The position numbers and the translations under genes are program-made. Of a DNA stretch of 64,000 nt, positions 25,283 through 48,644 are shown piece after piece. How positions within the stretch are numbered: the first letter of the stretch is position 1; each line of letters begins with the position of its first letter. Location of the stretch: contig JAIUOC010000003.1 in assembly GCA_020161265.1 (NCBI GenBank), positions 235,024 through 299,023 of the forward strand, written 5' to 3'. The notes beneath the pieces were generated by a model. That model made no database searches. It worked only from the letters and a program-made list of their open reading frames with translations, and was not told the DNA's origin. This DNA comes from Chloroflexota bacterium (lineage in GTDB: Bacteria > Chloroflexota > Chloroflexia > Chloroflexales > Herpetosiphonaceae).

Positions 25283-25319
25283 CACGGATGGGCTGTGACC
25301 TAGCAGAAGGAGTGCTCTA

Positions 25320-25478: not shown

Positions 25479-25489
25479 GATAGGCCGCC

Positions 25490-28326: not shown

Positions 28327-28380
28327 GCCACGGTTTTCGCGCAACGTTGATAGATGTTCACTTGTGAAAAGGATGACCCA

Positions 28381-28764
28381 ATGAGCCGTTTTACTCCAAC
28401 CACCACCGTCGATCTGACCGATGCCGAGGACACGATCACCATGCGCACGGGCTTGACCTATGGCCAACGCGCCGATTATGCCGATGCCTTGATGCAGATC
28501 GAGGGTGAGTATGTCACGACCTATCGCCGCCAGTTACTGATGCTCGAAGCCACAATCGAGGATTGGTCAGGCCCATCGTTTGATGCTATGCCGCTCACCC
28601 GCACTAGCATTGCGGCGCTCGATGCGCGTGATCCATTGGTACAACGGGCCGTCGCCCATGCCGAGGCGGTGATCTACCCAAAGGCCGCACCATTAACGGG
28701 CGACACCAGCAGCACAGCTTCAGCCACGCCGAGCAGCTCTACTGGGGTTGGTACGCCCAGCTAA
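28381..28764 (+). CDS. tail assembly chaperone (G-like)
   Basis: Acidic small protein immediately upstream of the tape measure; RBS AAGGA. Confidence 0.45.
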   Translation: MSRFTPTTTVDLTDAEDTITMRTGLTYGQRADYADALMQIEGEYVTTYRRQLLMLEATIEDWSGPSFDAMPLTRTSIAALDARDPLVQRAVAHAEAVIYPKAAPLTGDTSSTASATPSSSTGVGTPS

Positions 28765-28887
28765 GTGGCGCAGCGGCCACGCGGATCGGTGACTACGATG
28801 CCGAGGTGGCCTTAGCCATGCGCTTTGGCTGGACCTATGACCAAATTCGCCAGCAACCGGCTGGTTTTATTGATGAATTAATCGCGC

Positions 28888-32304: not shown

Positions 32305-32308
32305 GGAT

Positions 32309-33679
32309 ATGATGCCAACGACCCAACGCACCTGTTCGTTGATTGCCGGAACCGATACCTTTACGATTGGCGACCCCAGCGCGGGAGCCGATGCCACCTT
32401 TGTACTCGGCGGCGGAGCCATTCCCAGCACCCACGATGATCGCCCAGTGGAAACCCAGTGGCTGATTAATATTGTCGGCACGACGGCAGCCGATGCCATG
32501 AGTCGGCTGCAAAAACTAGGACGGATTCTGACCGCTGCGACTTATTACCGCACGGCTCCTGAGCAGTATGACAGCCTGCGGCCACGGGTGCTGTTTCAGC
32601 CCTTTGGTAGTAATCGCAGCACGCCGCTCGTGCGCAGTTTGCTCGATGCGACCGTGCCTGATGTGCCCGCTGGACTGATTGATACCGATTTACAAGCGAT
32701 TCCGCCCGGGATTAACGGGGTGGCGGTCAGCTTTCAGTCGGGCGGCTGGTGGTTGCCGAGCGAGGTCAGTGACTATGATCGGGTCACCTCCGCCAGTGTG
32801 GCCAATGGTAGTGTGATGAACCTGAACTTTGGCGCAACCCTGCATGCGATTGCTTCCCCAGCTCGCGTAACCGTGGCGGGCAACTATCCCCCAACCAGTA
32901 GTGGCTTCTTGAACATGCCGCTCTCGGCGCTGCTGGTGAGTAAACAAGGCGGGATTCAGGTGGTAGCGGGCAGTAGCTGGAGCACTGATGCCACGTGGGC
33001 GAGTAACAACCAGTCGGCCCAAAAAGCTCGCGATACCTTTGTCTTGCGCGGAACCCTCAGTGCTGGCGTGACGAGCACCACGCCGCAACATACGGGCGGC
33101 TTTAGTGTCAGTGGGCGGCAGACGGTGGTGACCAAGATTGCCGTGCGCACCGCTGGCGTGAGTGTGCGGATTGCCGCCATCCTCGACAATCTGGAGAATG
33201 GCCAAAGCCTCGTTTCGCCCGAAGAGGTCGTGAGTGGTGGCAGCACGACCAACCCGCAAATCGTGATCTTCCGCGAGATTGCGATTAATAGCGTGAGCAC
33301 CCGCTTGCGCTATCGGGTGACCGCCAGCGCCGCCGCGACGGTCGATATTGAAACCAGCTACCTCGTCGATACCACCCGCCCTGAGCATGGCGTGCGCATC
33401 CTTGAACCCTTCGCCTTAAATAGCAGCCCGACTGGCTTTGTGTTGGACTTCCAACCCACCTATCGCCCACGGGTGGCGATTACGGGCAAGTTTGTTGGTG
33501 CGCGTGGCCGCTTGCCCGTACAGGTTCCGGCCCAAACCGCAGCGGGAGCCGATGCCAATCTTGATGCGGTCTATATTGGAACCTATAGCACCAACTGGCG
33601 GATTGTCGATGCGGCCAGCGCGGTGACCAATTATGTGCTGACCCTGGACCGCTATCGGGCCTACCGGATGCCAGAGTAA
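32309..33679 (+). CDS. distal tail protein candidate
   Basis: Gene order after TMP. Confidence 0.4.
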   Translation: MMPTTQRTCSLIAGTDTFTIGDPSAGADATFVLGGGAIPSTHDDRPVETQWLINIVGTTAADAMSRLQKLGRILTAATYYRTAPEQYDSLRPRVLFQPFGSNRSTPLVRSLLDATVPDVPAGLIDTDLQAIPPGINGVAVSFQSGGWWLPSEVSDYDRVTSASVANGSVMNLNFGATLHAIASPARVTVAGNYPPTSSGFLNMPLSALLVSKQGGIQVVAGSSWSTDATWASNNQSAQKARDTFVLRGTLSAGVTSTTPQHTGGFSVSGRQTVVTKIAVRTAGVSVRIAAILDNLENGQSLVSPEEVVSGGSTTNPQIVIFREIAINSVSTRLRYRVTASAAATVDIETSYLVDTTRPEHGVRILEPFALNSSPTGFVLDFQPTYRPRVAITGKFVGARGRLPVQVPAQTAAGADANLDAVYIGTYSTNWRIVDAASAVTNYVLTLDRYRAYRMPE

Positions 33680-33690
33680 GCGAGGCAATA

Positions 33691-35457
33691 ATGCTTGATC
33701 CCCAATTCCAAATTCTGATTCAGGATCTGACGAGTAGCCAAATGCTGGATGTCTCCGATCGAGTGACTGCTGCCACGTGGCGCTATACCGAGCAGGGCTG
33801 TGGTGATCTCAGTGTCACCATGCCCTGCACCATGCCGGAAGCCTATTGGTTCAAAACGCTGCCGTTTATCTATGTCAAAGTCTTCAACCGCTGCTCGAAG
33901 CGCATCTGGTGGGGCCGTGCTGCTGGCGATGATGTAACAATTACCCGTACCGCAGATGGGGCTGTCTCAATCCAGATTCTGGCCTTGGGCCTCGTCAAAG
34001 CGCTCGAAGATATTCCGCATACGGGCTGGTGGAGCAGCACCCGCTATGGTGATTGGCAGGACGTAACTAGCGACCTGATTCCCAGTCGCACGCCCGAACG
34101 CTTCAGCTTTGAAACCGAGCGGCGCTTGCGGATTGCACCATCGGGCGGCAATGGCTTCACGACCAGCAGCATTGGTATGTTGTCGATTGTGCAGCCCGCT
34201 GCGGCCAGTGTGCAGTGGCAAACGATTGAGGCGAGCTACACCCTGAAAGCGCCTGCTGGATGGCGAGCCAGCTTGAGTCGTTATGATGGCACAACCTTTC
34301 TTTCCTCGCTCTGGACACTCGATGGCATTGGCACGGGCGCGACCGGAATCACCACGCAAAGCGGCACGCTGAGTTTCCTGAGCGGGGTTGGCTGTTCGCG
34401 CTTGGGCTTTAATCTGTTTTGTACCCGTGCGGCCACCAATCTCCATACCGCCGCAATTACGGCAGGCACGCGCACGGTCACGCCCGGTACGATGGCAGGC
34501 ATCGCGGTCAATGCCAAGTTGGCGATTGGCGGCGCGGAGCCGGAGGAAGTCGTGGTGACGGCCACGACCGCGACAACCTTTACCGCCGTGTTTCGTAATG
34601 CGCACCTTGGCAGCGATCTGGTGGAGCCACTGTGGGATGGCAATGATGGCGATATTGAGTTGATCATCACCAACGTGCGCGTGAAAGCCGTGACGACCCC
34701 AACCGTGACGCTGGATCAACTGGCCAAGTCTGCCTTGAGTGAGGTACTGGCCGTCAATCCATGGGCGGTCTTTAATAGCGATGGCAAAGTGCAAAGTCCG
34801 ATCGTCGATATCGCGAATCTCGTAGCTGACGATCAGCCGTGGGCGACGATCCTGAGTGAGCAGGTGCCGCTGGGGGATACCAGCAATCGCCCATGGGTGT
34901 GGGGTGTTGATGAGGATGGGGTGCTATTCGTGCGGCCTCGCCAGTCAGGGCGGGTCTGGTATGTGAGTACCGAGCAATGCAGCTATACCCAAGGCGGCAA
35001 TAGCGATGGACGCTGGACGAGCGGCTATGGGGTGTATGAGGATGAGCAAGGCCAACGCCAGCGCACGCCCATCCAAACCGATGCCCAAGCGTTGGCCAAT
35101 AGCGGGTTGGTGCGGCGCACCGCGCTATCAGTTGACAGCGGAACGCTCGCCGTGGCCATGCAGCGGACGAGCGTGTTTCTGAGTGATGCGGCCAAAGGCG
35201 AAGCCGCTGCCAGCCTGATCTGTGCGGTGCTGGAAACGGTGGATGGCATGGTCTATCCGGCAACCGAAGCGCGACCGGGGGACATGCTCCTGTTCCGCGA
35301 TGTGCTGCCCACCAGTAGCGCCGTAGCCAATCGCCTGAATGGTTTTGTCTTGGCCGAAGTGCGGGTGGATGGCTTCAATCTCGGCGCAGTGCAGCTCGTG
35401 CCGGAGGAGCCGCTGCCATGGTTGGAGATGATGACCGCCAAGGTGGGTATGAAGTAA
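33691..35457 (+). CDS. tail tip / tail fibre-like protein candidate
   Basis: 588 aa following distal tail protein. Confidence 0.4.
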   Translation: MLDPQFQILIQDLTSSQMLDVSDRVTAATWRYTEQGCGDLSVTMPCTMPEAYWFKTLPFIYVKVFNRCSKRIWWGRAAGDDVTITRTADGAVSIQILALGLVKALEDIPHTGWWSSTRYGDWQDVTSDLIPSRTPERFSFETERRLRIAPSGGNGFTTSSIGMLSIVQPAAASVQWQTIEASYTLKAPAGWRASLSRYDGTTFLSSLWTLDGIGTGATGITTQSGTLSFLSGVGCSRLGFNLFCTRAATNLHTAAITAGTRTVTPGTMAGIAVNAKLAIGGAEPEEVVVTATTATTFTAVFRNAHLGSDLVEPLWDGNDGDIELIITNVRVKAVTTPTVTLDQLAKSALSEVLAVNPWAVFNSDGKVQSPIVDIANLVADDQPWATILSEQVPLGDTSNRPWVWGVDEDGVLFVRPRQSGRVWYVSTEQCSYTQGGNSDGRWTSGYGVYEDEQGQRQRTPIQTDAQALANSGLVRRTALSVDSGTLAVAMQRTSVFLSDAAKGEAAASLICAVLETVDGMVYPATEARPGDMLLFRDVLPTSSAVANRLNGFVLAEVRVDGFNLGAVQLVPEEPLPWLEMMTAKVGMK

Positions 35458-35673: not shown

Positions 35674-37182
35674 ATGAGTAATTCACTTTATTATGGAGAC
35701 AATCTTGACGTACTACGTAGAAAAATTCGCGATGAGACGGTTGACCTCTGTTATATCGATCCTCCATTCAACTCTAAAAGAACCTACAATCAAATCTATA
35801 ATAATTTTGGCCAAGAAGATAAGGCTCAAGCTCAAGCATTTATCGATACTTGGAAATGGGATGATCATTCAAATAGCGGGTTAGCCCAAATCTTTGATAA
35901 TACTCATGGTTTATATCCATCACAGTGTATAGAATTAATTAATGGACTCCTAAAGGTACTAAGAAAAGGCAGTATGCTTGCCTATTTAGTAAATATGACC
36001 CTTCGTATCGCAGAAATTCATCGAGTATTAAAACCATCAGGAACATTCTTTCTCCATTGTGATCCTACGGCAAGTCACTATCTGAAACTTATTCTTGATA
36101 CTATATTTGTTTCTCAAGGTGGCGAATTTCAGAATGAGATTATTTGGTGTTATTCAATTGGTGGGAAATCAAGCAAACGATTTGCAGAAAAACATGATGT
36201 TATACTTTTTTATACAAAGTCAAATGATGATACCCACACATTTAATAGACAAGGTGCTATCATTCCCCGCAAACCAAACAGTCATATGAAAGTACGTTCT
36301 ACGGCTGATGGGAGACTATATCAAGAAAAAACTGATAAAAAATCAGGAAAAGTATATCGTTATTTTCTTGATGATGGGAAAATTGCTGAAGATTGGTGGA
36401 TAGATATTGAAACCTTAAATAGAGGAGATAGTGAGCGATTAGGATATCCTACGCAGAAACCTGAACGCCTTCTGGAACGCATTATTGGAACATTTAGCAA
36501 TGAAGGTGATTGTATTTTTGATGCTTATTGTGGATGTGGTACTACTATTAATGTTGCCCAACGATTAGAACGGAAATGGATTGGAATTGATATTACATAT
36601 CAAAGTATAGGATTAATTTTACGACGTTTAGAAGACTCATTTGGAACACAGTCCGTTACAAATATTCAGCTTTCTGGTGTGCCGCGAGACATGGATGGAG
36701 CTAGGGCATTAGCGAATAAAAAAGACGATCGCACTCGTAAAGAGTTTGAGAAATGGGCAGTTCTTACATTTTCTAATAATAGAGCAGTCATTAATGATAA
36801 AAAAGGAGCTGATCATGGTATTGATGGTAAAGCTTTTGTTCAAGAATCGATGAATAATCAGAGACCTATTGTATTTTCTGTTAAATCAGGTCATAACTTG
36901 AATGTATCAATGGTTCGCGATTTACATGGTGTTATTGCAAGAGAGGATGCTGCGGCGGGTATCTTGATTACTCTTGAACCACCTACAAAACCAATGAGTC
37001 ATGAAGCAAAAGCCGCAGGAACGTATCAAAATCCCTATATGAGTAATCCATTTGATCGAATTCAATTAGTGAGTGTTGAATCTATTCTCCAAGGAGAACG
37101 GCTTCGGTTACCATTAACTCATGAGGTTCTTAAACGCGCAGAGACTTATTCAGCAGGAGAAAACTTATCTTTTGGGCTATAA
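35674..37182 (+). CDS. DNA methyltransferase (N6_N4 beta-class, DPPF motif) fused to a C-terminal Mrr_cat-like restriction-endonuclease domain
   Basis: N-terminal LCYIDPPFNS; C-terminal ADHGIDGKAF...VFSVKSG...VRDLHGVIAREDAAAGILITLEP; AT-rich. Confidence 0.7.
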   Translation: MSNSLYYGDNLDVLRRKIRDETVDLCYIDPPFNSKRTYNQIYNNFGQEDKAQAQAFIDTWKWDDHSNSGLAQIFDNTHGLYPSQCIELINGLLKVLRKGSMLAYLVNMTLRIAEIHRVLKPSGTFFLHCDPTASHYLKLILDTIFVSQGGEFQNEIIWCYSIGGKSSKRFAEKHDVILFYTKSNDDTHTFNRQGAIIPRKPNSHMKVRSTADGRLYQEKTDKKSGKVYRYFLDDGKIAEDWWIDIETLNRGDSERLGYPTQKPERLLERIIGTFSNEGDCIFDAYCGCGTTINVAQRLERKWIGIDITYQSIGLILRRLEDSFGTQSVTNIQLSGVPRDMDGARALANKKDDRTRKEFEKWAVLTFSNNRAVINDKKGADHGIDGKAFVQESMNNQRPIVFSVKSGHNLNVSMVRDLHGVIAREDAAAGILITLEPPTKPMSHEAKAAGTYQNPYMSNPFDRIQLVSVESILQGERLRLPLTHEVLKRAETYSAGENLSFGL

Positions 37183-37398
37183 ACCCTATAATGTATAGCA
37201 GTCATACATTCTCATAACAAGCGGGTTTATTTATAAATTTAATGCTGATTATTGAAAATTTGCAATCAGTGATTTCATTACTACGCACTCGAGAACTTGA
37301 TATGACATAAGTTGTGATATAGCGGCGGTATAGCTCGTTTCGGAGGAGCCGCTGCCATTGCTGGAGATGGTGGTGGCGAAGTCTGCTATTCGCGATTA

Positions 37399-37447: not shown

Positions 37448-38644
37448 TTAGGACTTTAAAGTGATATCCTTTTCGAAAGGATTATATGTTCCTTGGGTTG
37501 CTTCAATAAGAAATGGTTTGATGAGTTCCTCTGCAATTCCAAGAATATTACTTTGTACAACTAAAGCACTATGCTGGGCTATTGTTTCAAATGAATCTCT
37601 TTCCATTATAGGAGAATCATAGCTTTGTCCACGAAATACCTTACTTCCCTGAATTCCTTCGATACGTAAACCGATATTGAGATTCCCTATATATCCCGCT
37701 TGTTGATATAAGTGATTTGCTATCCATAAAGTTTGAACCAATATTTTAGCTATACCCGCCTCGAAGAGGAAAAACCAATCCTCTCCTTTCTCCGAAATTC
37801 TCCCACAGCATATATATATTGAACCATCATGATGAACATTGACTGATATATTAGAGGCTAATATATCATGATTTTTAGCTGGATCAGAACCTCTATAAGC
37901 ACGAAATTTCCAGCCTTCAATGATACGTTTATCATTTTGTACTCCATCAATAAAAGATGGATTAAAACCTATGTTGAAATTGTAGGCCTGATGAGCTTTG
38001 GCTACCAGTTCATAAAAAGATCTATTCCAATCTGCATCATTAAAACGAGGAATACCTGAAAACACTTGGGTAAATCCTTGGGTTGGTTTGATAGCAATAT
38101 ACATTCTTCCATAATCTGGATGAGGAGGAATGTCGAGTATCTTTACAGCATCCTTAATGATCTCTCTCGCACTTGTTTCTCCAGCAAGACGACGCTGATA
38201 GAGACGTGCAATATCACCTTCGTTTAATGGAATGTTACCCCGCGAACTCCGTCCATAAAATCGATTCTCTTGTTTAACCGTAACCTGATGCGGCGCAAAG
38301 GGCGATGATGGAATTATCACAACGATATATCCCTTCAGCGGATCTGCTTCTGCGGAAAAAGCAGATATATGAATTTTGAGCGGTGGTTGCAGACTGTACA
38401 TTGCTATTTGAGCCAGTTTTTCTGGAACGCCGTCTAAATCGATTGGAGTAAGGATTTTTAATTGACCATTCTCTTCGCCAATACCGTAAATAATCACACC
38501 ACCATCATTCGCCATAGCAGCAAAATCTTTGGCGATCTCTACAGATTTGCTCGCAATTTGCTGTTTCGCATCAAAGGTTGCCGACTCTTCAATACCTTGG
38601 TCAATGGCTTGTTGCAATTCTGCTTCAGTTTTTGGAATCCACAT
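37448..38644 (-). CDS. AlbA_2 (Schlafen-like) domain protein
   Basis: N-terminal FDAKQQI...AKDFAAMANDGGVIIYGI matches the AlbA_2 pattern; about 200 aa uncharacterised C-terminus. Confidence 0.5.
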   Translation of the reverse strand: MWIPKTEAELQQAIDQGIEESATFDAKQQIASKSVEIAKDFAAMANDGGVIIYGIGEENGQLKILTPIDLDGVPEKLAQIAMYSLQPPLKIHISAFSAEADPLKGYIVVIIPSSPFAPHQVTVKQENRFYGRSSRGNIPLNEGDIARLYQRRLAGETSAREIIKDAVKILDIPPHPDYGRMYIAIKPTQGFTQVFSGIPRFNDADWNRSFYELVAKAHQAYNFNIGFNPSFIDGVQNDKRIIEGWKFRAYRGSDPAKNHDILASNISVNVHHDGSIYICCGRISEKGEDWFFLFEAGIAKILVQTLWIANHLYQQAGYIGNLNIGLRIEGIQGSKVFRGQSYDSPIMERDSFETIAQHSALVVQSNILGIAEELIKPFLIEATQGTYNPFEKDITLKS

Positions 38645-39071: not shown

Positions 39072-39400
39072 ATGAATTCCTTTTGATGATTATTTAAGCT
39101 AAACACTTAGGTTTAGTTCGTGGCTAGTCATATACGGCTCCTTATTAGATTACGAAATTTACAAGTGTGAGTAATTTATAGATTACATAATGACTCCTTT
39201 TCTGATTTTAGATACAAAAAAACCCGCAAAGATTTTCACTAAATCTTTACAGGCTTTATTAGATATAAAATCTAATTGTAAAGACGTGATCATACACAAT
39301 ATTTGCGGTACGATCCGTCAAATGGAATAGGTGATAAACCTATATTTCAATGGTAGCGTTATTTTTTATTCCTGTCAAGTGCTATTTTGAAACAAATATT

Positions 39401-40336
39401 CTATATCTTTGCCTCAAACCACCCTGCCCTTAAAAAGCGATGCGGCTGCTGAATGCGTTGGCCATGTTTTGTATACTGGGCTGTCCAGATCGGCGTGAGA
39501 ATACCTGACTCACGCACATCATCAATCGTGGCGATCAGCAATTGGCTCCCGGGCCAGCCGATTTCCCATGCATCGAGCACTGCCCGTTTGCGACGTTCGC
39601 TCGGCACGGTAAAGGCAATCAGCGGCCATTGATAGCGACCTTCCCAATACTTCGAGCGATACAACTCTCCATAGGAGTGGGCTTTGCCCGTGATAATACT
39701 CAGCTCCTCAGTTCCCCGATCAATCTCGATCGCATAAAGTTGATCGATCTGCCCCTGTTGTTGGCCAATCCCAAGCCACGGATACAACGACGAGCGCTCG
39801 CAATCGGGCTTCGTCGCATCAGCCCAGCGGCGCACCACGACAATCCCATCAGCGCGTGGCCGTGCGGTTGGGCCTAAGTCCATCTCAATATAACTGCTCA
39901 TGCCGACAATACCAGGCACATATGGTAGCGATTGAATCAAACTGGTGATAACCTCGGCATACTCAATTTGATGTTCAGCCTGGTGCTGCGGATTAAACAT
40001 CGTGGGTGCAAGTCGCTCACTGCCTTCTTCAAGCATGGGTAAGGCCTGTTTGACGATCTCCCAGCCGAGCGGCGTGAGACTATATAGGCGGCCATGGCGC
40101 GTCCAGCCGATTGCACCACGCGGATCATAGCCATGCGATTGAAAGTGTTCGCAGTAGGTCAGTAATTTCGCATCAACCAGTTTGACCAACGTGCGATTGA
40201 CCGTTTGAATCGTCACGGTAAACGGATGCCCCCAGGCTGTGCGTAGGTGACGCGAGAGTAATCGGCCAAGCCGAGCAACGAGCACGAGGATCTGCATTTC
40301 GATGGGATTCAAGCCAATGGGTGTTGAAAATACCAT
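39401..40336 (-). CDS. winged-HTH protein, replication-relaxation-family-like candidate
   Basis: N-terminal wHTH-like segment; adjacent to FtsK-like ATPase as in conjugative elements. Confidence 0.35.
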   Translation of the reverse strand: MVFSTPIGLNPIEMQILVLVARLGRLLSRHLRTAWGHPFTVTIQTVNRTLVKLVDAKLLTYCEHFQSHGYDPRGAIGWTRHGRLYSLTPLGWEIVKQALPMLEEGSERLAPTMFNPQHQAEHQIEYAEVITSLIQSLPYVPGIVGMSSYIEMDLGPTARPRADGIVVVRRWADATKPDCERSSLYPWLGIGQQQGQIDQLYAIEIDRGTEELSIITGKAHSYGELYRSKYWEGRYQWPLIAFTVPSERRKRAVLDAWEIGWPGSQLLIATIDDVRESGILTPIWTAQYTKHGQRIQQPHRFLRAGWFEAKI

Positions 40337-40633
40337 ACAACTATCTCCTCATAATCATAATGGTAGCTGCGCAGCCGGTTAAAGAATGTCGGCACGACCA
40401 AATGACCAATTTAGGCGATTCTAATGCGCTATTTTTTGCTTGGCGATTTGTAGGCCGTCTGAATGCGAAATGAATACGATTTGAACACGATGTGAACATA
40501 TACGCCGAGGGAAAAGATGGTGCGAGCAAAAGAAACGCCATTAGCAAATAACGCATCTGCCAACGGCGTTTTTGTAATAGATGAATTCCTATATTCGATA
40601 GTATTTGATTATTTTCAATGATAATGAAAATAA

Positions 40634-41758
40634 TCATGAGATGTCGGATTGTTCAATCAGTTGTTTAATCTGGCGGATTTGTTCTTGACGGCGCTTGCGT
40701 TTACCGCCTAAAGTGTCAATAATTTCGTTGCCACTTTTCTGCTCAAGGAGCAATTTGGTAATCGCGACAATATCCTCGATACTGGTTCCCTCAATCGCGG
40801 TAGTTTCGCTGGTTCCCTCGGTTCCCACGCTTGAATTGTTCTCTTTTTGCTCTTGGGTACTAGGGTACTGCCATACAACACTCTGATTAATTGGCTGAAG
40901 TGACAATGCATAGGCAGGCTCACGATCACACCAAAACCATTTACTATTCCACTCAACGGCTGCTGGCCATGATAGTGACGAAGATGCTTTCATTTTCTCT
41001 ACAGCCCGATCGCCGATTGCTACCCATAAGAGATTATCGAGTGCTTCACTATCACCCTCAATTCCTAACGGATTGACCAATGTGGTTTGGGTTACGACGA
41101 TAAGATGCATTCGGTATTTGGCAGCTTGGCGAAGCATTTCACCAACAAAGCGCCGAGCAATTGGTACTTTGGGTTTTGCCGATGATCCATCTTCGCCATG
41201 CACCTTACTCATCACATCAGGTGCTTCTTCGAGTACGATCGTAATAGGATCAAACTCAATTACCCCTTTTGAAGCAGCTTCCTTGCGTGCTTGGAGTTCC
41301 TCAAGAAGTATCTTCATGACATGGTTAATCTCGCCATACGCCTGAACTTGTGACAACCCACCATAGTCATTTGGTCGGGCATGCGAGTTGAGAATCACCA
41401 GCTGGTGTCCATCAATCGAACGTAAGTAGGTCAAAGCCATACTAAGTATCGATTTTCCTTGTCGTGATGGTCCGGCAATCCCAATATGTGGTCGCTTCCC
41501 GAGCAGCTCCAGCAGTGCAGGCCACATATAGATTGATGGCTGATCGTCGATAGATGAAGCAACAACACCTTTGGTTGATGATTTTGCGATTGGTGTTACT
41601 GTCACAGGTTTTGTTTGCCCACTCGATTGACCTGGTATCGAGAGTGCTGGTCGTCGTTTTGCTGGAGGAGTTCGTGCATGCCACCAGAGAAATGTACCTA
41701 CAAAACTACAGGCAAAAAGAAATATTGTTGGATAAAGCCAAGGGGAGTTAATATCCAT
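40634..41758 (-). CDS. FtsK/SpoIIIE-like DNA translocase ATPase with N-terminal TM (TraB/TraSA-like)
   Basis: Walker A GPSRQGKS, Walker B IVLEEAPDV; start at ATG 41758 with RBS AAGGAGGA. Confidence 0.6.
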   Translation of the reverse strand: MDINSPWLYPTIFLFACSFVGTFLWWHARTPPAKRRPALSIPGQSSGQTKPVTVTPIAKSSTKGVVASSIDDQPSIYMWPALLELLGKRPHIGIAGPSRQGKSILSMALTYLRSIDGHQLVILNSHARPNDYGGLSQVQAYGEINHVMKILLEELQARKEAASKGVIEFDPITIVLEEAPDVMSKVHGEDGSSAKPKVPIARRFVGEMLRQAAKYRMHLIVVTQTTLVNPLGIEGDSEALDNLLWVAIGDRAVEKMKASSSLSWPAAVEWNSKWFWCDREPAYALSLQPINQSVVWQYPSTQEQKENNSSVGTEGTSETTAIEGTSIEDIVAITKLLLEQKSGNEIIDTLGGKRKRRQEQIRQIKQLIEQSDIS

Positions 41759-42194
41759 CGTGCTCCTCCTTTGATGTAGCTCCAAACGCCAAATACTCGG
41801 GCCACCGAGCAGAGACAATTCCAATTGCTAATCCTAGCGCCCATGCTATCAATCGTGCGGTTATGCCTGTGCTCAGCTTGTATGCGATTTGATAAAACAG
41901 CCAATCACACCATTTGTAGGCGGTAATAATGGCATCGGGAGCCAGAAAGCTTACGTAGCCCCACCCTGAACGCCGTAAGGTGTACATTTGTCCCACAAAG
42001 AGAAAGAAGGCTAGCCCAAGCCCTGCAAAGATTCCTCGGAGATCGCGTTGGCCCCAGAGCCAATATTGAAAATCGCTCATTGTTGAGACGGTGGTCACAA
42101 TACTATTGCCCCAACCAATTGTGCAGGCGATCCCCTTTACGAGTTTGCGACTGGGGTCGAGGCGGCGTAGATCGAATAACACATCGGTAGTCAT
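41748..42194 (-). CDS. membrane protein
   Basis: 148-aa ORF with hydrophobic helices. Confidence 0.3.
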   Translation of the reverse strand: MTTDVLFDLRRLDPSRKLVKGIACTIGWGNSIVTTVSTMSDFQYWLWGQRDLRGIFAGLGLAFFLFVGQMYTLRRSGWGYVSFLAPDAIITAYKWCDWLFYQIAYKLSTGITARLIAWALGLAIGIVSARWPEYLAFGATSKEEHDGY

Positions 42195-42293
42195 CGTGTT
42201 CTCCTTTGGTATACTAGCGCTGCATCACTTTGGTGTTCTCCTGTGATGCACGCCGCCGATGGTGGTGCATCGGCGGCACTTTATCCTTATTAA

Positions 42294-42647
42294 TTAAGTA
42301 TTGGTTTCATTGATATCCGGTGGAGATTCTGTTTGTGCATCAGCGGCAGAGTTTGACTGAACTGTCACACACTGGTATTCGATGAGATAAAGATCGGCAT
42401 AGCGCTGCAATGGTGCGTCATAGTAAGCTCGGCCAACAGGCTGTGCTCCTCGTTTAAGCCGATAACCCATCTTTGTAATTTGGGTTTTGGTGCGCAAGGT
42501 CATCCCAACTCGTTCAAGAAGGGGAATCCAATGCTCCCGCTGCCCTGATCCCCACGTGAATCGATTTCCTTCTAATCCTTGGGCTACATCGTTTAGCACC
42601 CGTCGAATAACTTCAATTCGTTGTTTGGCGGTATTTGGTGATCCCAT
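42294..42647 (-). CDS. hypothetical protein
   Basis: 117-aa ORF. Confidence 0.3.
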   Translation of the reverse strand: MGSPNTAKQRIEVIRRVLNDVAQGLEGNRFTWGSGQREHWIPLLERVGMTLRTKTQITKMGYRLKRGAQPVGRAYYDAPLQRYADLYLIEYQCVTVQSNSAADAQTESPPDINETNT

Positions 42648-42653
42648 AAAACC

Positions 42654-42974
42654 TCATACATCATATTCAAGGTAGGGGTCGTCAGTTATAGGGTCTGGCG
42701 TGCTCTGGTTTTGTTCAACAGAAGTTGAACAATTGGCTAACGCTTGTTCAACGTTTCCAGTAAGTAATTCCATTAATTTGCTGCGAATTGCTTCATCATT
42801 GATTCGGGCAAGGCTTGCCATAATATCGGCAGCGAATAAACGAATATCTTTGCCACTGGCATGCAGTCCAATAATGATGAGGGCGCGGAGCACTGCGGAT
42901 TCATTACCAAGGCTCCTAACGGTTTTGCTTAGCAAGGTGGAACTTCGCGTAGTTAGGCGTTCTTCAAAACTCAT
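42654..42974 (-). CDS. hypothetical protein (possible ParR-like adaptor)
   Basis: Small ORF immediately downstream of ParM-like gene. Confidence 0.25.
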   Translation of the reverse strand: MSFEERLTTRSSTLLSKTVRSLGNESAVLRALIIIGLHASGKDIRLFAADIMASLARINDEAIRSKLMELLTGNVEQALANCSTSVEQNQSTPDPITDDPYLEYDV

Positions 42975-43963
42975 TGGCCAAGCTCCTCATAGCGCCGCGC
43001 ACGGCGGGCGTATCCGCGTGCGATCGCTGTTTGTGGATTTGGGGCAACAATAGCCTGTCGAAAGCGTTGTTGGAGCGCACGAACAAGGATTGGCAACTCA
43101 GCTCCACCGCCTGCGATAATGATGGCATCGAGCTTTCCGCCACTTCCCCAGGCACGCACCATCGCATCGGCAACTTGCTGACCATTTGCTTCCCAAGGGC
43201 GTTCCCAACCTGTTGGTAGATCGAGTTCTTCGCCGGCTACCCGTACATAGCCCTTGCGCACTGCTTGATCAACATCGTGAAGTGTGAGATCGATGTTATA
43301 ACGCCCGCTAATTCGCGTTTGGAGTTGCTGGAGTGGATTAGCACTCCCAAGCTCGAAGCTAATCGCACTATCGGGAATAACATTTAAGGCTTGGACAATG
43401 CAGGCATCCACGGTGTTATGACCAAGATCAATGACTCCAATGCGGCCTGTCTCGTATCCAAGATTGAGAATGCGCCCTGTTTCATCGAGTAACACGCCAT
43501 ACAATGCCCCAAGTGGCTCGCTAATCACACGAATTCCTGTTTTGAGGGTTGCACCGTGAAAGAACCCACTTGGCACAGCGTCACGTAAACGCCCAGCAAG
43601 CGCAACTGCGAGATCACGCTCACCTATCCAAGCTGCTGGTAACCCGGTTACACAAGCGCCGCCAGTTGGTTGGCCAAGCCGTTGAAGTGCTCCTTTAACA
43701 AGCGCTGGAATAATGTGGCGGTCGTAGAGTCGTTGTTGTGAGCGAAGAGAGAGGGGCGAGGGTGCTAATAATGCGTGCTCACCCGTCCACCAGAGTGTTC
43801 CATGAACTTCTACCGTTGGAATATCGTGGAGACTTCCCTCTGCATTGCTTGCTGCTGGAGCAACAATTGCTGGAAAAATAGTTGTCTGCTCTTCGCCATT
43901 CTCATTGATTGTGTACTTAACAAAGCCATGGCCGATATTTGCTCCATGAACGGTAATTGACAT
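42971..43963 (-). CDS. ParM/StbA-family actin-like ATPase (partition)
   Basis: ASKHA motifs: GIDLGHNTVD, IIIAGGGAE. Confidence 0.55.
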   Translation of the reverse strand: MSITVHGANIGHGFVKYTINENGEEQTTIFPAIVAPAASNAEGSLHDIPTVEVHGTLWWTGEHALLAPSPLSLRSQQRLYDRHIIPALVKGALQRLGQPTGGACVTGLPAAWIGERDLAVALAGRLRDAVPSGFFHGATLKTGIRVISEPLGALYGVLLDETGRILNLGYETGRIGVIDLGHNTVDACIVQALNVIPDSAISFELGSANPLQQLQTRISGRYNIDLTLHDVDQAVRKGYVRVAGEELDLPTGWERPWEANGQQVADAMVRAWGSGGKLDAIIIAGGGAELPILVRALQQRFRQAIVAPNPQTAIARGYARRARRYEELGQ

Positions 43964-44033
43964 ATAATGCTCCTAAGTAAGGTTTCCCACAGGCCGCTGG
44001 TGTATGCATTGATTGCAGATACTGGTGGCTTTT

Positions 44034-44246
44034 TTATTGTTGTGATTGGTCAGCGATTGGTAATTTAAGGGGTGCAGAGTGATTGGGCTGGAAGGTAATT
44101 GTTCCGTAGGCTAACCATTGCCCTTTACGACCTTGCCGTGCAGACTGGATAGCAACGCCTGATTGCTGGAGCTGCGTTACCGCCGTTTGGGCATCTTCTT
44201 GAGAATCGGCGATGATACGGATCTGAACAATAATAGGCTTGTTCAT
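44034..44246 (-). CDS. hypothetical protein
   Basis: Start MNKPII with RBS AAGGGGGG. Confidence 0.3.
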   Translation of the reverse strand: MNKPIIVQIRIIADSQEDAQTAVTQLQQSGVAIQSARQGRKGQWLAYGTITFQPNHSAPLKLPIADQSQQ

Positions 44247-44254
44247 AACCCCCC

Positions 44255-45391
44255 TTATGATGCTGCTGATTGAAGATCGGTTCGTGTAATACCCATCCAC
44301 CATTGATCAAGATGGGTAGCAATCCACGCGCGTAAATCTATGCCACACTGTGCAACCATGGTTCCAAAATCGTGTGGGTCAGGGCGCATGCGATAGACTT
44401 CTTTGCCTTTGAAGATATCAAGCCAAAATGCAGCTGATTTATCTCCAGCGGCATCGGCATCAGTCGCGATAAAGAGTGGTTGGCACAAGCTGTATTGCAC
44501 GAGCCATCGAAATGCACGGCCTTGGGTTGTCCCAACTGCCACGACCCCAGCGAGTGGAGTTCCTCGTCGTTCAAATTGGCCAAGTGCTTGTTGGGCCACA
44601 AGGGCATCGATCGGTCCTTCAACAAAGATGCTTGGCTGCCCAGGTCGCAGCGTATCGATGCCATAGGGAACATTACTGCTTCCGGCTACCGTCACATACT
44701 TAAAGCCTTCATCACGAGGATTGGTTTGGCGAATTGAGAGCTTCCAGAGCTGCCCATCACAAAACCAAGGAATAACATACCCTGCAGGCAACCACACGCC
44801 ATCTTTATCCGGGTCATCAAGTCCCCACCGGTGTAATGGACGGTTGAGCGGTTTCGGGTTATAGCCAATTGCTGCGGTGCGGATTGTATGATCACTTAGG
44901 CCACGTTGGCGAAGATAGGTCAGCGGCGTTGAATCAGCAGCGGCATCTTTCCACAACATATCCACGCAATAGCCGAGAAAACTCAGGCCCATTTGTTGCC
45001 ATTGTGTGCCTGGTGGCTCACAGGCGCTCGGTGGCTCAGGGTCAGGAACCGATCGTGATTCCTTAGCTGATCGCGTAATGGTTAATCCGAGTGCTTCAAA
45101 AGCCGCTTTAATCAAAACAGGCCAATCAGGGTGATCTTTGGTTGGAATGAAGCCATGGTCGCGCAGGAAAATAAAATCAATATCCGATGCCCATGGCTGG
45201 CCCATGCGACAACCACGACACCACCAGCGGCCACCGCTATCGCCATGTGGTTGAACACGAAACCGATCCTTGCCACCACACAAGGGGCAGGCTCCGGCCC
45301 ATTCACCACCATTGGTTGCGGCTACTTTGCGCAGGGTAGTACGCTGGCCAACCAAGGCAAGAAAATCATCGCCGGAAAGATGGTCAATCAT
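44255..45391 (-). CDS. DnaG-type primase (zinc-binding + TOPRIM)
   Basis: CPLCGGKDRFR zinc finger; TOPRIM VEGPIDAL ... ATDADAAGD; RBS GGGAGG. Confidence 0.65.
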   Translation of the reverse strand: MIDHLSGDDFLALVGQRTTLRKVAATNGGEWAGACPLCGGKDRFRVQPHGDSGGRWWCRGCRMGQPWASDIDFIFLRDHGFIPTKDHPDWPVLIKAAFEALGLTITRSAKESRSVPDPEPPSACEPPGTQWQQMGLSFLGYCVDMLWKDAAADSTPLTYLRQRGLSDHTIRTAAIGYNPKPLNRPLHRWGLDDPDKDGVWLPAGYVIPWFCDGQLWKLSIRQTNPRDEGFKYVTVAGSSNVPYGIDTLRPGQPSIFVEGPIDALVAQQALGQFERRGTPLAGVVAVGTTQGRAFRWLVQYSLCQPLFIATDADAAGDKSAAFWLDIFKGKEVYRMRPDPHDFGTMVAQCGIDLRAWIATHLDQWWMGITRTDLQSAAS

Positions 45392-45675
45392 TGAAACCTC
45401 CCACAAGAAACGTCACTAGCGTCACCGAAGTGTCATGCTGTCTAAAGTAGTGATTTATGTCTTTCCAAAGGGATAAAACTGATAATCGTCGCAATGTCAC
45501 AAGTGTCACATGATTCTCGTTATTGAGGACTCTGGTTAATGATCGCGTGCATGTTTCATATTAAATTGGACATGTCCCCCTGTGACTCTGTGACTCTTCT
45601 TAAGAAAGCCGCTCTCAGAGGCGCTTTTTAGCGTCACAATCCATCGGTGACAGTTCGGTGACGTTGTGTCGCTTC

Positions 45676-47271
45676 TCATGCGCTGAACCTCCATACCTGA
45701 ATTGATCGGCCATTGGCTGCTTTGCTATCCAGCACATCAACCTGGCCTGCAAGTCGTAACACCTCTAAGACCTCGGTAATCTCTTTTTTGGATTGGTGGG
45801 TTCTGCGGCAAAGATCACGCACCGTCAACCCTGAAAGGGTATCTTTCAGAATGTCCAGCAGTTTATCGCCCAACTTAGTTTCTTCACTCTGAATCCCATC
45901 GCTCCAAATACGGTGCAAATCGCTGCGCCAGCGCTCGACAATCGCGATCGCGCGTTTGAGGTGATCGAGCTGCATGATTACTGGCAATTCAGGGCAATCC
46001 ATCGCGGCCAAAATCATGGCCACGCGCAATGCATGCCCTGGGAAACGGGCATAACTGGCATAGAGTGTGTCGGGTAGTCCGCTGTTGGGGAGATCGAACC
46101 GCAGCACCTTGTCATAGCGTTTCCACAATCCCATCACACCAGGTGCGAGTCGGATCGCACTCGGGGGATGTTCGTTATAGATCCGCACAAAGCGCTTGAT
46201 ATTTTCCTCAGGCACATCGTCTACCAGTTCGGCCTCGGGCTTGGGAAACAGGGTATCCAGATCCTTGAGACCATCAAGGAGGTCATCAGGCATCACCAAT
46301 TCGTCGGGAAACTCGGCATAACGAGGTGGTGCATCTGGCATCAGAATGGCGAAGCGACTCCATAGGCCTTCATCCCACAGTTTCTCGCTGCGGAGGTGAT
46401 CTTCAATATTCTTTGGTGTGGTTGCGCCAAGGAACGAGAGACTGGCATCACGAATCGTTGTTCGGCCATGGGTGATCGTTTCGTGGGCCAAGTATTCAGG
46501 GTTATCAAATAGCTTGAGTAAGAGCGAGAGCAGCTCGGCCATATACTCTTTTTTCATGTCACTGAATAAGAACCCGGCTTCATCGAGCAGCCATGCCCGT
46601 TGGGCCGCTTGGGCGCGGGCGAGCAGCCACTGTTCACGGTCATAATCACTGTAGCTGTCCAGCTTATCAGGAATGACGGTCGAAAACTGCTGGAGCAGCG
46701 ACTGAGGCGTGCTCTTGTCGGGTAAGAGCAAATGGCCAAGGCCCGCACGCCGCAGTACCCGCTCGACGACTTTCATGGCCGTCGATTTGGCATAGCGACC
46801 AGGGGGTGCAACGAACAAAGCATAGACATTGGGATAGTAGAAGGTCTCACCAATTTGGAGATACAGCCGTCGCGCGATCGCAGTTGCTGCTAGGAAAAGA
46901 CCTGCGGCTTCGTGAAAAATAGGTGGTGTGACTGGACTAGCTTGGCTGGCATAGTCAATGAAGGTGTCAAGCCATGTGCCACATTTGCCCTGCTGTCGAA
47001 TGACCTTTGTCAGTTCGTTCGGCAGCGGCGGCATGGTGCGGAGCGCCGGTGTTGGCTCACTCTCGATTAAGAGCGAAGCAATCCGATGATCGGCGCGGAT
47101 TGCCGTCTCCAGCGCCGCACGAACGCCGTCTGCACCACCAGCTTCGAATGCCTGCATCAGACTCTGAATAACAGCTTCCCATTCACCATAATCCTGTTGA
47201 CCAGGGATTGTTGATTGCAACAATGCGTTGATTGCAATGCGGGCTGCTAAAAAGGTAGGTTGTGTTGTCAT
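45676..47271 (-). CDS. DUF3987-like primase-associated / replicative helicase-loader-like protein
   Basis: 531 aa; degenerate P-loop VAPPGRYAKST; genomic association with primase. Confidence 0.4.
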   Translation of the reverse strand: MTTQPTFLAARIAINALLQSTIPGQQDYGEWEAVIQSLMQAFEAGGADGVRAALETAIRADHRIASLLIESEPTPALRTMPPLPNELTKVIRQQGKCGTWLDTFIDYASQASPVTPPIFHEAAGLFLAATAIARRLYLQIGETFYYPNVYALFVAPPGRYAKSTAMKVVERVLRRAGLGHLLLPDKSTPQSLLQQFSTVIPDKLDSYSDYDREQWLLARAQAAQRAWLLDEAGFLFSDMKKEYMAELLSLLLKLFDNPEYLAHETITHGRTTIRDASLSFLGATTPKNIEDHLRSEKLWDEGLWSRFAILMPDAPPRYAEFPDELVMPDDLLDGLKDLDTLFPKPEAELVDDVPEENIKRFVRIYNEHPPSAIRLAPGVMGLWKRYDKVLRFDLPNSGLPDTLYASYARFPGHALRVAMILAAMDCPELPVIMQLDHLKRAIAIVERWRSDLHRIWSDGIQSEETKLGDKLLDILKDTLSGLTVRDLCRRTHQSKKEITEVLEVLRLAGQVDVLDSKAANGRSIQVWRFSA

Positions 47272-47292
47272 ACATCCCTCAAAAACAACCTC

Positions 47293-47508
47293 TCACGCAA
47301 GGAGAGAGGAAAGGCTGATAGGTTCTCGTTGTGGTGCTGGTGGGGGGGGATTGAGAAAGTGACATTCCAGCATCAATTGAATGCGGCGCAGTCGTTCCAC
47401 GTGGACGCTATTCGCATTCATTGGTAACGAGCGCTCGGCTATTTGTAAGGTAAAGACTAGGTCGTCCAGATCCTGTTGTTGTTCCGGTGATAAAGTGTGA
47501 GATTGCAT
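47293..47508 (-). CDS. small hypothetical protein (possible regulator)
   Basis: 71-aa ORF divergent from integrase. Confidence 0.25.
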   Translation of the reverse strand: MQSHTLSPEQQQDLDDLVFTLQIAERSLPMNANSVHVERLRRIQLMLECHFLNPPPPAPQREPISLSSLLA

Positions 47509-47635
47509 AACAGTTGCAACCTTTCTGCTACCGTGTGTAGCGGGTTGTTGTCATCGTCCTGTAATCTAGCGCTCCAAAAAGAGAAAATTGGTTGCACCTT
47601 ATATAGGGTGTGTACATTTTGTGAGGAGCGTTTAA

Positions 47636-48510
47636 TGCCTACGATTCACTCTCTACTTCCTGCATATGAGCGTTCTATGCGCTCACGTGGGCAACGCCCA
47701 AGGGGTATCCAACGCTATATCGCCCATCTCCGCAGCTTCCTCGTTCACGCTGGGAATGATTTTGATATCGTTGATCTGAAGCCACGCGACATTCGCAGGT
47801 TTCAAGAAGTCCGTTGTGAGGAAGTGGCCCTTCGCACCGTCCATGGTGCGTTGACGGCCCTTCGCTCGTTTTGCCTTTGGGCTATCGAGGAAGAGTACAT
47901 TGCAGACGATCCGACTGCGCGAATGCGATGGCCCAAGCTACCAGAAACAGCCCCAAAAGCATTGACGCGTCAACAGCTTCGCCGTTTGATGACAGCCCTA
48001 GAAGAGCCGATTGACTTGGCTACTCATGAGCGATGGCAATGGCGGCGAAATAGACGGGTTATTTTATTGATGTTATTTGCTGGGTTGCGTATGTCGGAAG
48101 TGATTGACCTACGCTGGCGCGATGTCGATCTTGATAATCGCGTCTTGGTTGTGCGTGATGGAAAGGGCGGGCGAGCACGTTCGCTACCCATTCATGCAGC
48201 ATTGGCAAAAGAGCTTAGTCGTGTTGCTATAAAAGATCCAGAGTATGCGGTTGCTGGTCGGAGCGATGGTGCTCCAGTATCCCGCGATCACGATAAGATG
48301 TTTCGGCGCTGGTTGAAGGAACGTGGTGTCGAGTTGAGTGCTCACCAGCTGCGTCACACGTTTGCGACTGAATTAATGCGGAGTGGTGCAAATTTACGGT
48401 ATATCCAAGAACTTATGGGCCACCGTAGTATTGAAACCACCCAACGCTATCTCTTGGTCGAGCCAGATGTGCTACGGGTTGCTGTAGCACAAATGCCTGC
48501 TGCCTGGTAG
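47636..48510 (+). CDS. int: tyrosine integrase
   Basis: RBS GAGGAG; catalytic motifs LRMSEV..., HQLRHTFAT, HRSIETTQRY; adjacent to att repeat. Confidence 0.8.
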
Positions 48511-48541: not shown

Positions 48542-48644
48542 CGAGTCCCTCATCACCCACCAATGCCACTTTAGCTCAGTTGGTAGAGCATACGACTGAA
48601 AATTGTAGGGTCTCCGGTTCGAGCCCGGAAGGTGGCACCAAATC
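48542..48644 (+). repeat. attR-like 103-bp direct repeat
   Basis: Identical to 11839..11941. Confidence 0.7.
48565..48640 (+). tRNA. tRNA-Phe (GAA), second identical copy within the att repeat
   Basis: Same 76-nt sequence as 11862..11937. Confidence 0.8.

Follow-up and report, generated by a model that had tools for sequence, protein, structure and literature searches.

How a complete set of siphovirus genes comes to stand beside genes of the kinds that serve plasmids in replication, segregation and DNA transfer is the question raised by a prophage of the Chloroflexota. The stretch of DNA analyzed (hereafter the window) comprises 64,000 nucleotides (nt) of contig JAIUOC010000003.1 (assembly GCA_020161265.1; family Herpetosiphonaceae), and the genes in question form a block on its minus strand, between positions 39401 and 47508. 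A preliminary description, made from the sequence alone, had assigned to this block a ParM protein, a DnaG-type primase, a DUF3987-like protein, an FtsK/SpoIIIE-type membrane ATPase and a replication-relaxation-like winged helix-turn-helix (wHTH) protein, and had proposed a phage-plasmid, or a phage fused with a conjugative element. All five gene types were found at this place, and genes of replication, partition and DNA-transfer type are indeed joined, inside one complete prophage, to a virion module.

In the reading that we favor, with somewhat less than even confidence, the block represents the non-structural arm of a lineage of temperate siphoviruses, integrated in Herpetosiphon, with modules for replication, segregation and mobilization, the last being of the type known from integrative mobilizable elements (IMEs). 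What is new here is the mobilization module, which unites within a prophage a relaxase of the MOBC class, a site resembling an origin of transfer (oriT) and a TcpA-like ATPase. The relaxase and the DNA site are common to this prophage and to plasmids of the same genus that encode a type IV secretion system (T4SS), which turns a "mobilizable prophage" into a concrete hypothesis: the phage may be movable by conjugation.

The relaxase gene and its cis site

The mobilization module contains the following genes and sites (protein lengths in amino acids, aa):

39219-39257, minus strand: terminator-like hairpin (17-pair stem, then a T run) closing the Replic_Relax unit
39401-40336, minus strand: Replic_Relax protein of 311 aa (PF13814, MOBC relaxase class; 33.6 bits against a cut-off of 25.3, residues 41-234)
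40362-40404, minus strand: conserved non-coding core of 43 nt, CATTTGGTCGTGCCGACATTCTTTAACCGGCTGCGCAGCTACC, candidate nick region, oriT-like
40455-40498, minus strand: four direct repeats with an 11-nt period, TGTTCACATCG, TGTTCAAATCG, TATTCATTTCG and CATTCAGACGG, 50 nt upstream of the core
40533-40571, minus strand: terminator-like hairpin (18-pair stem, then a T run) after the ATPase gene
40634-41758, minus strand: membrane-anchored FtsK/TcpA-like P-loop ATPase of 374 aa
41748-42194, minus strand: membrane protein of 148 aa with two strongly hydrophobic segments (hydropathy)

In the direction of transcription, the order is therefore small membrane protein, TcpA/FtsK-like ATPase, terminator, 11-nt direct repeats, 43-nt core and MOBC-class relaxase. 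By the standard layout of IMEs, the relaxase gene directly follows a coupling-protein gene (PMC5357655).

The match to PF13814, which lies above the cut-off, bears out the replication-relaxation-like character ascribed earlier to the wHTH protein, and the same domain is carried by all of the relaxase homologs P0165-P0171. PF13814 corresponds to the MOBC relaxase class, which has the PD-(D/E)XK fold, with TraX of pAD1 and MobC of CloDF13 as prototypes (PMC5357655, table 1; PMC12857230; PMC3424549). The N-terminus of the window protein gave a weak, below cut-off match to the MarR-type wHTH model MarR_2 (residues 8-63, E 0.0075). Seven residues (E121, E125, D153, D163, E204, D206 and K218) are invariant in nine relaxase homologs sharing 55-100% identity, both prophage- and T4SS-type; these acidic residues and the lysine are candidate catalytic residues of a PD-(D/E)XK-type nuclease domain.

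The unit made up of repeats, core and relaxase gene is bounded on both sides by terminator-like hairpins. In each of the 11 loci compared (seven prophage-type and four T4SS-type), the core lies upstream of the gene or operon for the relaxase, and 38 of its 43 nt are identical between the window and plasmid pHAU01, while the respective relaxases are only 56% identical. An exact 22-mer of the core occurs once in the window and seldom in public collections. The repeats keep their arrangement across the loci (3-5 copies, 11-nt period, approximately 50 nt upstream of the core), with a sequence that is specific to each lineage: TGTTCAnATCG (four copies) in the window, GAACCTTGTCC (three copies) in pHAU01, TACCRTTTCAC (four copies) in locus L021, and again lineage-specific repeats in L018/L022. 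The MOBC relaxase TraX of pAD1, which has an N-terminal wHTH, binds five direct repeats located 70-120 bp from nic (PMC12857230). In layout, the repeats and core match the oriT architecture of the TraX type, and we regard the whole as oriT-like and the 11-nt repeats as a candidate relaxase binding site. We do not regard the open reading frame (ORF) of 98 aa at 40341-40637 as a gene: it runs across a terminator as well as repeats and core, and it is conserved only where it resembles non-coding DNA.

Homologs on plasmids encoding a T4SS

The only plasmid match to the relaxase was Haur_5116 of H. aurantiacus plasmid pHAU01 (CP000876), with 56% identity over the full length. Haur_5116 belongs to a cluster encoding a VirB4-like ATPase (Haur_5109), a VirD4-type coupling protein (T4SS-DNA_transf) and an NlpC/P60 hydrolase. 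H. gulosus, H. llansteffanensis and a metagenome contig have the same cluster of VirB4, coupling-protein and NlpC/P60 genes, with a relaxase that is 55-58% identical to that of the window. MOB-suite types pHAU01 as "non-mobilizable" despite its T4SS cluster, MOBC-class relaxase and oriT-like site (locus L015, 141-172 kb); this plasmid is likely to represent a conjugation system of the Chloroflexota that standard typing has overlooked, and it provides, together with the window, a first candidate oriT and relaxase for conjugation in this phylum. The cultured strain H. aurantiacus DSM 785 holds both a close relative of the prophage, on its chromosome (CP000875), and the candidate helper T4SS, on pHAU01, which makes the mobilizable-prophage hypothesis testable.

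The membrane ATPase and its partner

The 374-aa ATPase comprises (i) one N-terminal transmembrane (TM) helix (residues 6-29; hydropathy and model), (ii) a disordered linker, (iii) a RecA-type motor with Walker A (GPSRQGKS), Walker B (VLEE) and TQ motifs, and (iv) a conserved C-terminal three-helix domain resembling a helix-turn-helix (HTH). The end of the gene for the 148-aa membrane protein overlaps the start of the ATPase gene by 11 nt, and the same overlap is present in three related prophages.

Taken alone, the ATPase gave no usable match in Pfam, PHROGs, NCBIfam or PADLOC; at E ≤ 0.1 the Pfam search returned neither PF01580 nor FtsK-gamma, and only a spurious match to Dynamin_N. An exhaustive profile search yielded 875 family representatives, and a word-indexed homolog search with a 60-sequence profile yielded 17 proteins. 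PF01580 was matched by 36 of 60 relatives, weakly (best E 2.4e-7), and HerA models were matched as well. A search of PDB sequences with a 5-sequence profile gave only noise. Among PDB sequences, the family profile matched the FtsK motor (E 1.2e-12) across Walker A and the Walker B/TQ segment, followed in rank by EccC, HerA, VirB4, TcpA and TrwB. An AlphaFold model built from a 10-sequence alignment had a predicted local distance difference test (pLDDT) score of 75.8, with 85-95 in the motor domain, compared with 49 for a 5-sequence alignment. The solved structure closest to this model is the conjugative coupling protein TcpA; structural relatives also occur among viral proteins.

On profile and model, the ATPase is best placed as a TcpA/FtsK-like member of the FtsK-HerA superfamily and not as a bona fide member of PF01580. 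The earlier assignment to an FtsK/SpoIIIE-type membrane ATPase thus stands as regards the TM anchor and the FtsK-type motor fold, and falls as regards any direct match to PF01580 or FtsK-gamma. It had also been asked whether the protein might be a paralog of the terminase TerL; this was ruled out, since TerL is encoded by its own gene (20967-22499, phrog_2) and the nearest structure is TcpA.

A protein encoded in a metagenome-assembled "Chloroflexi bacterium" genome is 100% identical to the ATPase, and proteins of Herpetosiphon species are 65-67% identical to it. A tblastn comparison of the ATPase and the relaxase with a phage collection produced no matches. Relatives of the ATPase reside on plasmids of mostly filamentous cyanobacteria, e.g. 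pDU1, pCC7120zeta and a Pseudanabaena plasmid (NCBI name: T4SS DNA-transfer protein). Some of the plasmids carrying family members are very small (loci L006, 2957-4129; L019, 1557-2690; L005, 7611-8921), including the classic vector replicon pDU1 (6.4 kb) and pCC7120zeta (5.6 kb). Distant homologs were also seen on short Chloroflexaceae contigs and on 14-kb plasmids of Clostridium perfringens (locus L007, 10045-12049), where the homolog is directly followed by a gene for a G2P-type rolling-circle Rep, i.e. another ATPase-then-nickase pair.

Replication and segregation genes

The remaining genes of the minus-strand block are as follows:

47293-47508, minus strand: ORF of 71 aa, the first of the leftward operon; no family (Pfam, PHROG), not conserved in related prophages
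45676-47271, minus strand: DUF3987 P-loop protein (PF13148, 80.7 bits against a cut-off of 27)
44255-45406, minus strand: primase with Zn-ribbon and Toprim domains (Zn_Ribbon_Prim and Toprim_2 above cut-off; phrog_47, 5e-18)
44034-44246, minus strand: ORF of 70 aa between the primase and actin-like genes; no Pfam match
42971-43963, minus strand: actin-like (ParM/ALP-type) protein (ALP_N, 31.5 bits against a cut-off of 26.3; MreB-like_C, 43.9 bits against 27.8)
42654-42974, minus strand: protein of 106 aa, directly downstream of the actin-like gene with a 4-nt overlap; 55-58% identical in related prophages, no match to hidden Markov models (HMMs) of Pfam, PHROG or NCBIfam
42294-42647, minus strand: ORF of 117 aa; no family, not kept in related prophages

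The score against PF13148 confirms the DUF3987-like protein. It aligns with positions 364-784 (of 788) of phrog_3022, which form the C-terminal part of phage primase-helicase fusions, and its distant relatives include proteins of Microcystis and Aeromonas phages. The neighboring primase has the Zn-ribbon and Toprim domains expected from its earlier labeling as DnaG-type, and scores only 17 bits against the dnaG equivalog TIGR01391 (cut-off 283.6). On these comparisons it is a phage/plasmid-type Toprim primase and not a chromosomal DnaG, and together with the DUF3987 protein it corresponds to the split version, in two halves, of a phage primase-helicase.

The actin-like protein had been named ParM. 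Models of the ASKHA family recognize it above their cut-offs (ALP_N and MreB-like_C, see the list), and it matches phrog_691 ("partition protein") over its full length (1.6e-28, residues 5-320); its closest PDB sequence is the pSK41-type ParM 3js6. The narrower name is not sustained, with scores far below those of the curated equivalogs for ParM (PRK13917, 48 bits against 417) and PRTRC_D (TIGR03739, 65.5 against 214.8). The 106-aa protein is a candidate segregation adaptor by virtue of its position, which is that of ParR.

The preliminary description considered this combination of genes typical of plasmids and integrative conjugative elements (ICEs) rather than of siphoviruses. This view holds in part. 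The block does resemble plasmids in its gene content; the primase, DUF3987 and actin-like proteins, however, all have phage (PHROG) families, and therefore these three alone do not indicate a plasmid or an ICE. Actin-like proteins in particular constitute a populated phage family, with members even in lytic SPO1-like phages. More generally, genes of these three types, taken alone, are poor evidence of a plasmid lifestyle. They are compatible with a plasmid-like episomal phase, without demonstrating one.

The integrated prophage and its relatives

The element occupies 36.7 kb of the window and is flanked by a perfect 103-nt direct repeat, as an integrated prophage. Its limits and the modules outside the minus-strand block are:

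11839-11941, plus strand: attL, the first 103-nt repeat, comprising the 3' end of a tRNA-Val gene, a spacer, the whole tRNA-Phe gene and 4 nt; perfect match to 48542-48644 (tRNA calling and alignment)
18054-35457, plus strand: virion and lysis module encoding an amidase, HTH/TerS, TerL, SPP1-type portal, scaffold-like, capsid, tail tube and tape measure proteins and two tail proteins (Pfam)
47497-48510, plus strand: tyrosine integrase adjoining attR (Phage_integrase, 3e-35; likely start at the ATG at 47635)
48542-48644, plus strand: attR, the second repeat copy, including the full tRNA-Phe gene

The virion module is a complete set of the siphovirus type, with a tape measure protein of 1138 aa. 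The minus-strand arm is transcribed leftward, from 47508 to 39401, divergently from the integrase gene. The G+C content varies within the element: 0.59-0.61 in the virion module, 0.47-0.53 in the replication/transfer arm and 0.37-0.42 in cargo genes, with approximately 0.50 in the host flanks. A third att copy was sought between the modules, and only two copies of the att core were found in the island. Two tandem elements were ruled out on account of this single att pair.

Prophages of H. aurantiacus DSM 785, H. llansteffanensis and H. geysericola have a gene order in common: DUF3987, primase, actin-like protein, small ORF, membrane protein, ATPase, Replic_Relax, tail genes. Gene-order comparison thus found the block of the window in all three. 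The H. aurantiacus copy is chromosomal (CP000875) and corresponds to a 34.3-kb viral region of IMG/VR. Where the flanks of the relatives were readable (the H. aurantiacus chromosome and H. llansteffanensis), host genes adjoin the integrase end. A search for related loci with the closer ATPase alignments recovered only Herpetosiphon prophages. In a prophage of H. giganteus (locus L022, 5639-10939), PRTRC-like genes (Prok-E2_D, Prok-JAB, ThiF, DUF3102) replace those for the primase, the actin-like protein and the ATPase. A phage of the H. giganteus type also lies on a 37.5-kb Logan contig (L023). Amino acid identities between the window and the three related prophages are:

Tail proteins: 90-98%
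Replic_Relax: 91-93%
DUF3987 protein: 83-86%
Primase: 80%
Actin-like protein: 79-80%
148-aa membrane protein: 74-76%
ATPase: 65-67%
Integrase: 26-27%

The gap between the integrase and the other proteins (65-98%) indicates that the integration module has been swapped. The same block and near-identical tail genes are found in three genomes behind a different integrase, which makes a recent accidental fusion unlikely, and likewise a tandem of elements. Judged from these alignments, a single phage lineage carries both the block and the virion genes, and their union is not the result of chance. The proposed fusion of a phage with a conjugative element is consequently improbable as a recent event, in view of the single att pair and of the three other genomes.

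Outside the block, the low-G+C left arm (15536-17331) encodes a second tyrosine recombinase with XerD-like domains (15536-16525) and a protein with a SEC-C motif; no extra att copy accounts for this region.

Possible mode of spread and alternative explanations

The phage and conjugative routes of transfer are usually assigned to separate kinds of element. It is possible, if rather doubtful, that the present prophage combines them, being a temperate tailed phage and at the same time an IME: it would spread in virions and also, by means of its own MOBC relaxase, oriT and TcpA-like ATPase, through the T4SS of co-resident Herpetosiphon plasmids, and its terminator-bounded relaxase/oriT cassette would be exchanged among conjugative plasmids and several unrelated Herpetosiphon prophages. 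If the cassette works, hosts lacking the phage receptor could come within reach, and transfer need not kill the donor.

From the gene identities, the integration, the conserved layout, the homology of the relaxase and cis site to those of T4SS plasmids and the fold of the ATPase, we infer the following course of binding, nicking, coupling and transfer. The actin-like ATPase and the small protein encoded downstream would position or partition the excised, replicating genome. After excision, the wHTH domain of the relaxase would bind the direct repeats, and the enzyme would nick in or near the core. The nicked DNA could then be passed, via the coupling-type ATPase of the phage, to the T4SS of a co-resident pHAU01-like plasmid. 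Alternatively, it could prime replication of the rolling-circle type, as with the relaxase of ICEBs1, one of the ICEs whose relaxases also act as replication initiators (PMC5357655); both options could coexist.

Several observations weigh against this reading. There are no T4SS genes among the larger ORFs of the element, which is for this reason at most mobilizable and not conjugative, and the window cannot reveal whether its host carries a helper plasmid. The hairpin at 40533-40571 separates the ATPase and relaxase genes into different transcription units. Their pairing is, moreover, facultative, as seen from cassettes without the ATPase and from an ATPase without a relaxase. The H. giganteus prophage (L022), whose tail protein is only 25% identical to that of the window, has a 90% identical relaxase cassette without the ATPase. 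IMG/VR entry UViG_2508501111_000003 (L018) carries two inverted relaxase cassettes (3023-3955, minus strand, and 8638-9561, plus strand), 4.6 kb apart, both 93% identical to that of the window and each with the core; no gene for an ATPase, primase or actin-like protein lies nearby. A 49% identical ATPase, preceded by a weakly similar membrane protein, was seen on a contig of an unrelated phage from which actin-like, primase and relaxase genes are missing. Coupling proteins of streptococcal IMEs are likewise gained, lost and swapped independently of the relaxase (PMC5357655). As for the cis site, the core overlaps a weak promoter-like match and could be an operator, and its two small inverted repeats or hairpins gave no covariation, its sequence hardly varying. 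In the H. aurantiacus (locus L002, 11997-12986) and H. geysericola (locus L014, same position) prophages, core and relaxase gene are separated by an ORF of 329 aa that belongs to no Pfam family. MOBC relaxases have been the subject of few studies, and no covalent DNA adduct has been detectable (PMC12857230). Finally, no convincing parC- or centromere-like iterated repeats were present in the non-coding DNA around the actin-like gene or in other intergenic regions.

The cassette may instead serve the phage alone. Replic_Relax would then be a phage nickase or initiator, the repeats and core a replication origin (iterons and nick site) for rolling-circle or late replication, and the membrane ATPase with its partner would have some other role in the phage, e.g. 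in handling DNA at the membrane or in superinfection exclusion, with no conjugation. Nicking for replication is suggested by the family name and by a match of the relaxase to phrog_9381 ("replication initiation by nicking"; E 0.001), and "plasmid replication" is among the family roles given in PMC3424549. Iterons next to a conserved site equally describe replication origins, the double role of the ICEBs1 relaxase points the same way, and adjacent FtsK-like and Replic_Relax genes are known from a lytic Bacillus siphovirus (PMC9658697). That the cassette is kept at approximately 90% identity in unrelated phages, whether the ATPase is present or not, would also fit a core phage function. The element, however, already possesses a replication module (primase/DUF3987) whose exchange is not tied to that of the cassette; among homologs outside phages, the nearest ones that share the core lie in T4SS clusters and not beside plasmid replication genes; and the solved structure closest to the ATPase is a conjugative coupling protein. 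We hold this purely viral role to be possible and somewhat improbable. A true phage-plasmid, replicated by the primase/DUF3987 proteins and partitioned by the actin-like protein as a low-copy episome in some hosts or conditions, with integration as one of two lysogenic states, is in our view unlikely. The genome does join virion genes to maintenance genes of plasmid type, as the preliminary description noted: its actin-like protein matches ParM/ALP and "partition protein" models, a conserved small gene occupies the adaptor position, and the second tyrosine recombinase (15536-16525) could possibly resolve dimers. In a related prophage the corresponding place is even taken by another plasmid-type cassette, which is PRTRC-like and has ThiF, E2 and JAB domains. 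Yet the element is integrated between perfect att repeats with the integrase adjacent, its relatives with readable flanks are chromosomal too, the centromere repeats were not found, and actin-like proteins also occur in strictly lytic phages and hence are no proof of plasmid maintenance.

Transfer without a T4SS, as in actinomycete ICEs (AICEs) of Streptomyces, would require the membrane ATPase to act like TraB and to pump double-stranded DNA of the element between adjacent cells, e.g. along a filament. Herpetosiphon and most plasmid hosts of the ATPase family (Nostoc, Tolypothrix, Pseudanabaena) are filamentous, family members on plasmids as small as pDU1 and pCC7120zeta fit such a role, and so does the union of a TM anchor, an FtsK-type motor and a C-terminal HTH-like domain. 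The likeness to AICEs claimed in the preliminary description nevertheless fails in most respects: the integrase is the sole hallmark, and no RepSA/RepAM-type or prim-pol Rep, NUDIX or GntR-type Kor was matched in the larger ORFs scanned (Spd proteins being beyond HMM screening). Furthermore, the ATPase has no direct FtsK_SpoIIIE or FtsK-gamma match in Pfam, the 11-nt repeats travel with the relaxase and not with the ATPase, and TcpA, its closest structure, works with a T4SS. A MOBC-class relaxase, which TraB systems do not need, and an oriT-like site point to mobilization of the relaxase/T4SS type rather than to relaxase-free, FtsK-driven transfer of double-stranded DNA, and we consider the latter quite improbable. 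Least credible, to the point of being highly improbable, is the chance proximity of a prophage and a separate IME or plasmid remnant with no functional link. The two integrases of the island, its strong G+C mosaic (virion, block and 0.37 in cargo) and the independent exchange of its modules could be so explained; against this stand the two att-core copies, with none between the modules, the joint presence of the block and near-identical tail genes in three other species with a different integrase, and the lack of any other replication module among the larger ORFs of the island (Pfam scan).

Comparison with known systems

The favored reading, a phage arm with an IME-type mobilization module, finds its nearest parallels in the traW-oriT2-traX region of pAD1 and the MobB/MobC pair of CloDF13. 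These systems also have a relaxase of the PF13814, PD-(D/E)XK class with an N-terminal wHTH (a weak match in the window protein), and a gene for a coupling-type ATPase adjoining the relaxase gene. In pAD1 this neighbor is a possible TraG-like gene located beside traX, and in CloDF13 MobB and MobC are the coupling-type ATPase and the relaxase, respectively. A "possible TraG-like protein" figures in the title of Francia and Clewell 2002, as cited in PMC5587640. The short direct repeats that TraX binds lie, as here, tens of bases from the presumed nick region (PMC12857230). In contrast to both systems, the present cassette resides in a tailed prophage of the Chloroflexota and not on a conjugative or mobilizable plasmid, and its ATPase is TcpA/FtsK-like and not VirD4/TraG-like; the link of TraX and MobC to the window relaxase is one of Pfam-level membership only.

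Streptococcal IMEs may have a TcpA-type coupling gene upstream of a non-canonical relaxase gene, followed by excisionase and integrase genes (PMC5357655). They resemble the present element in the compact succession of FtsK-like ATPase and relaxase, in a tyrosine integrase at a tRNA-type site and in the exchange of the coupling protein independently of the relaxase. They differ in that TcpA-type proteins there accompany rolling-circle-related relaxases and MOBC relaxases accompany VirD4, whereas here a MOBC relaxase accompanies a TcpA/FtsK-like ATPase, and in that the carrier here is a complete 36.7-kb phage genome and not a small island. Keyword searches in two recent reviews of mobilizable elements and plasmid mobility (PMC11389934, PMC12282955) found no passage on prophages with their own relaxase, oriT and coupling protein.

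The ATPase has a membrane anchor, an FtsK-type motor, Walker A/B and TQ motifs in common with TcpA of C. perfringens pCW3 (PDB 6o1x) and with the FtsK motor. It is only 13-16% identical to them, has no direct PF01580 match, is anchored by a single TM helix, carries an additional HTH-like domain at its C-terminus, and has no T4SS encoded nearby. TcpA itself has two TM segments.

In the Bacillus siphoviruses Novomoskovsk and Bolokhovo (PMC9658697), too, a Replic_Relax gene comes immediately after an FtsK/SpoIIIE gene, and small DNA-binding genes of partition type are present as well. The similarity is remote (hhalign E 6e-5 and 5e-4), and their Replic_Relax is a 91-aa fragment; no shared cis site or T4SS homolog is reported, and the Novomoskovsk genome has no annotated integrase or actin-like gene.

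With ParMRC (type II) systems and phage actin-like proteins (phrog_691, SPO1 gp27.9), the segregation module has in common the full-length match and the small gene directly downstream, in the ParR position. Unlike in ParMRC, the scores are far below the ParM and PRTRC_D equivalog cut-offs, the adaptor has no recognizable family and centromere repeats were not found. AICEs of the pSAM2 type resemble the element in the integrase at a tRNA gene and the membrane FtsK-superfamily ATPase; they differ in the Rep, NUDIX and Kor proteins missing from the matches here, and in the relaxase, oriT-like site and full virion module that are present instead.

Cargo genes

The slot between the tail genes and the relaxase holds variable cargo. 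In the window it contains a gene for a Schlafen/AlbA_2 protein (37448-38644, minus strand), and in the H. llansteffanensis prophage (locus L010, 14852-18868) genes for an MmeI-type restriction-modification enzyme and a DUF6602 protein. A gene of low G+C content (35674-37182; 0.37) encodes a fusion of a DNA methyltransferase with an Mrr-type nuclease domain. Bracketed by an imperfect (79%) direct repeat of 57 nt (35386-35442 and 37325-37381), it has the appearance of a cassette that was inserted behind the last tail gene.

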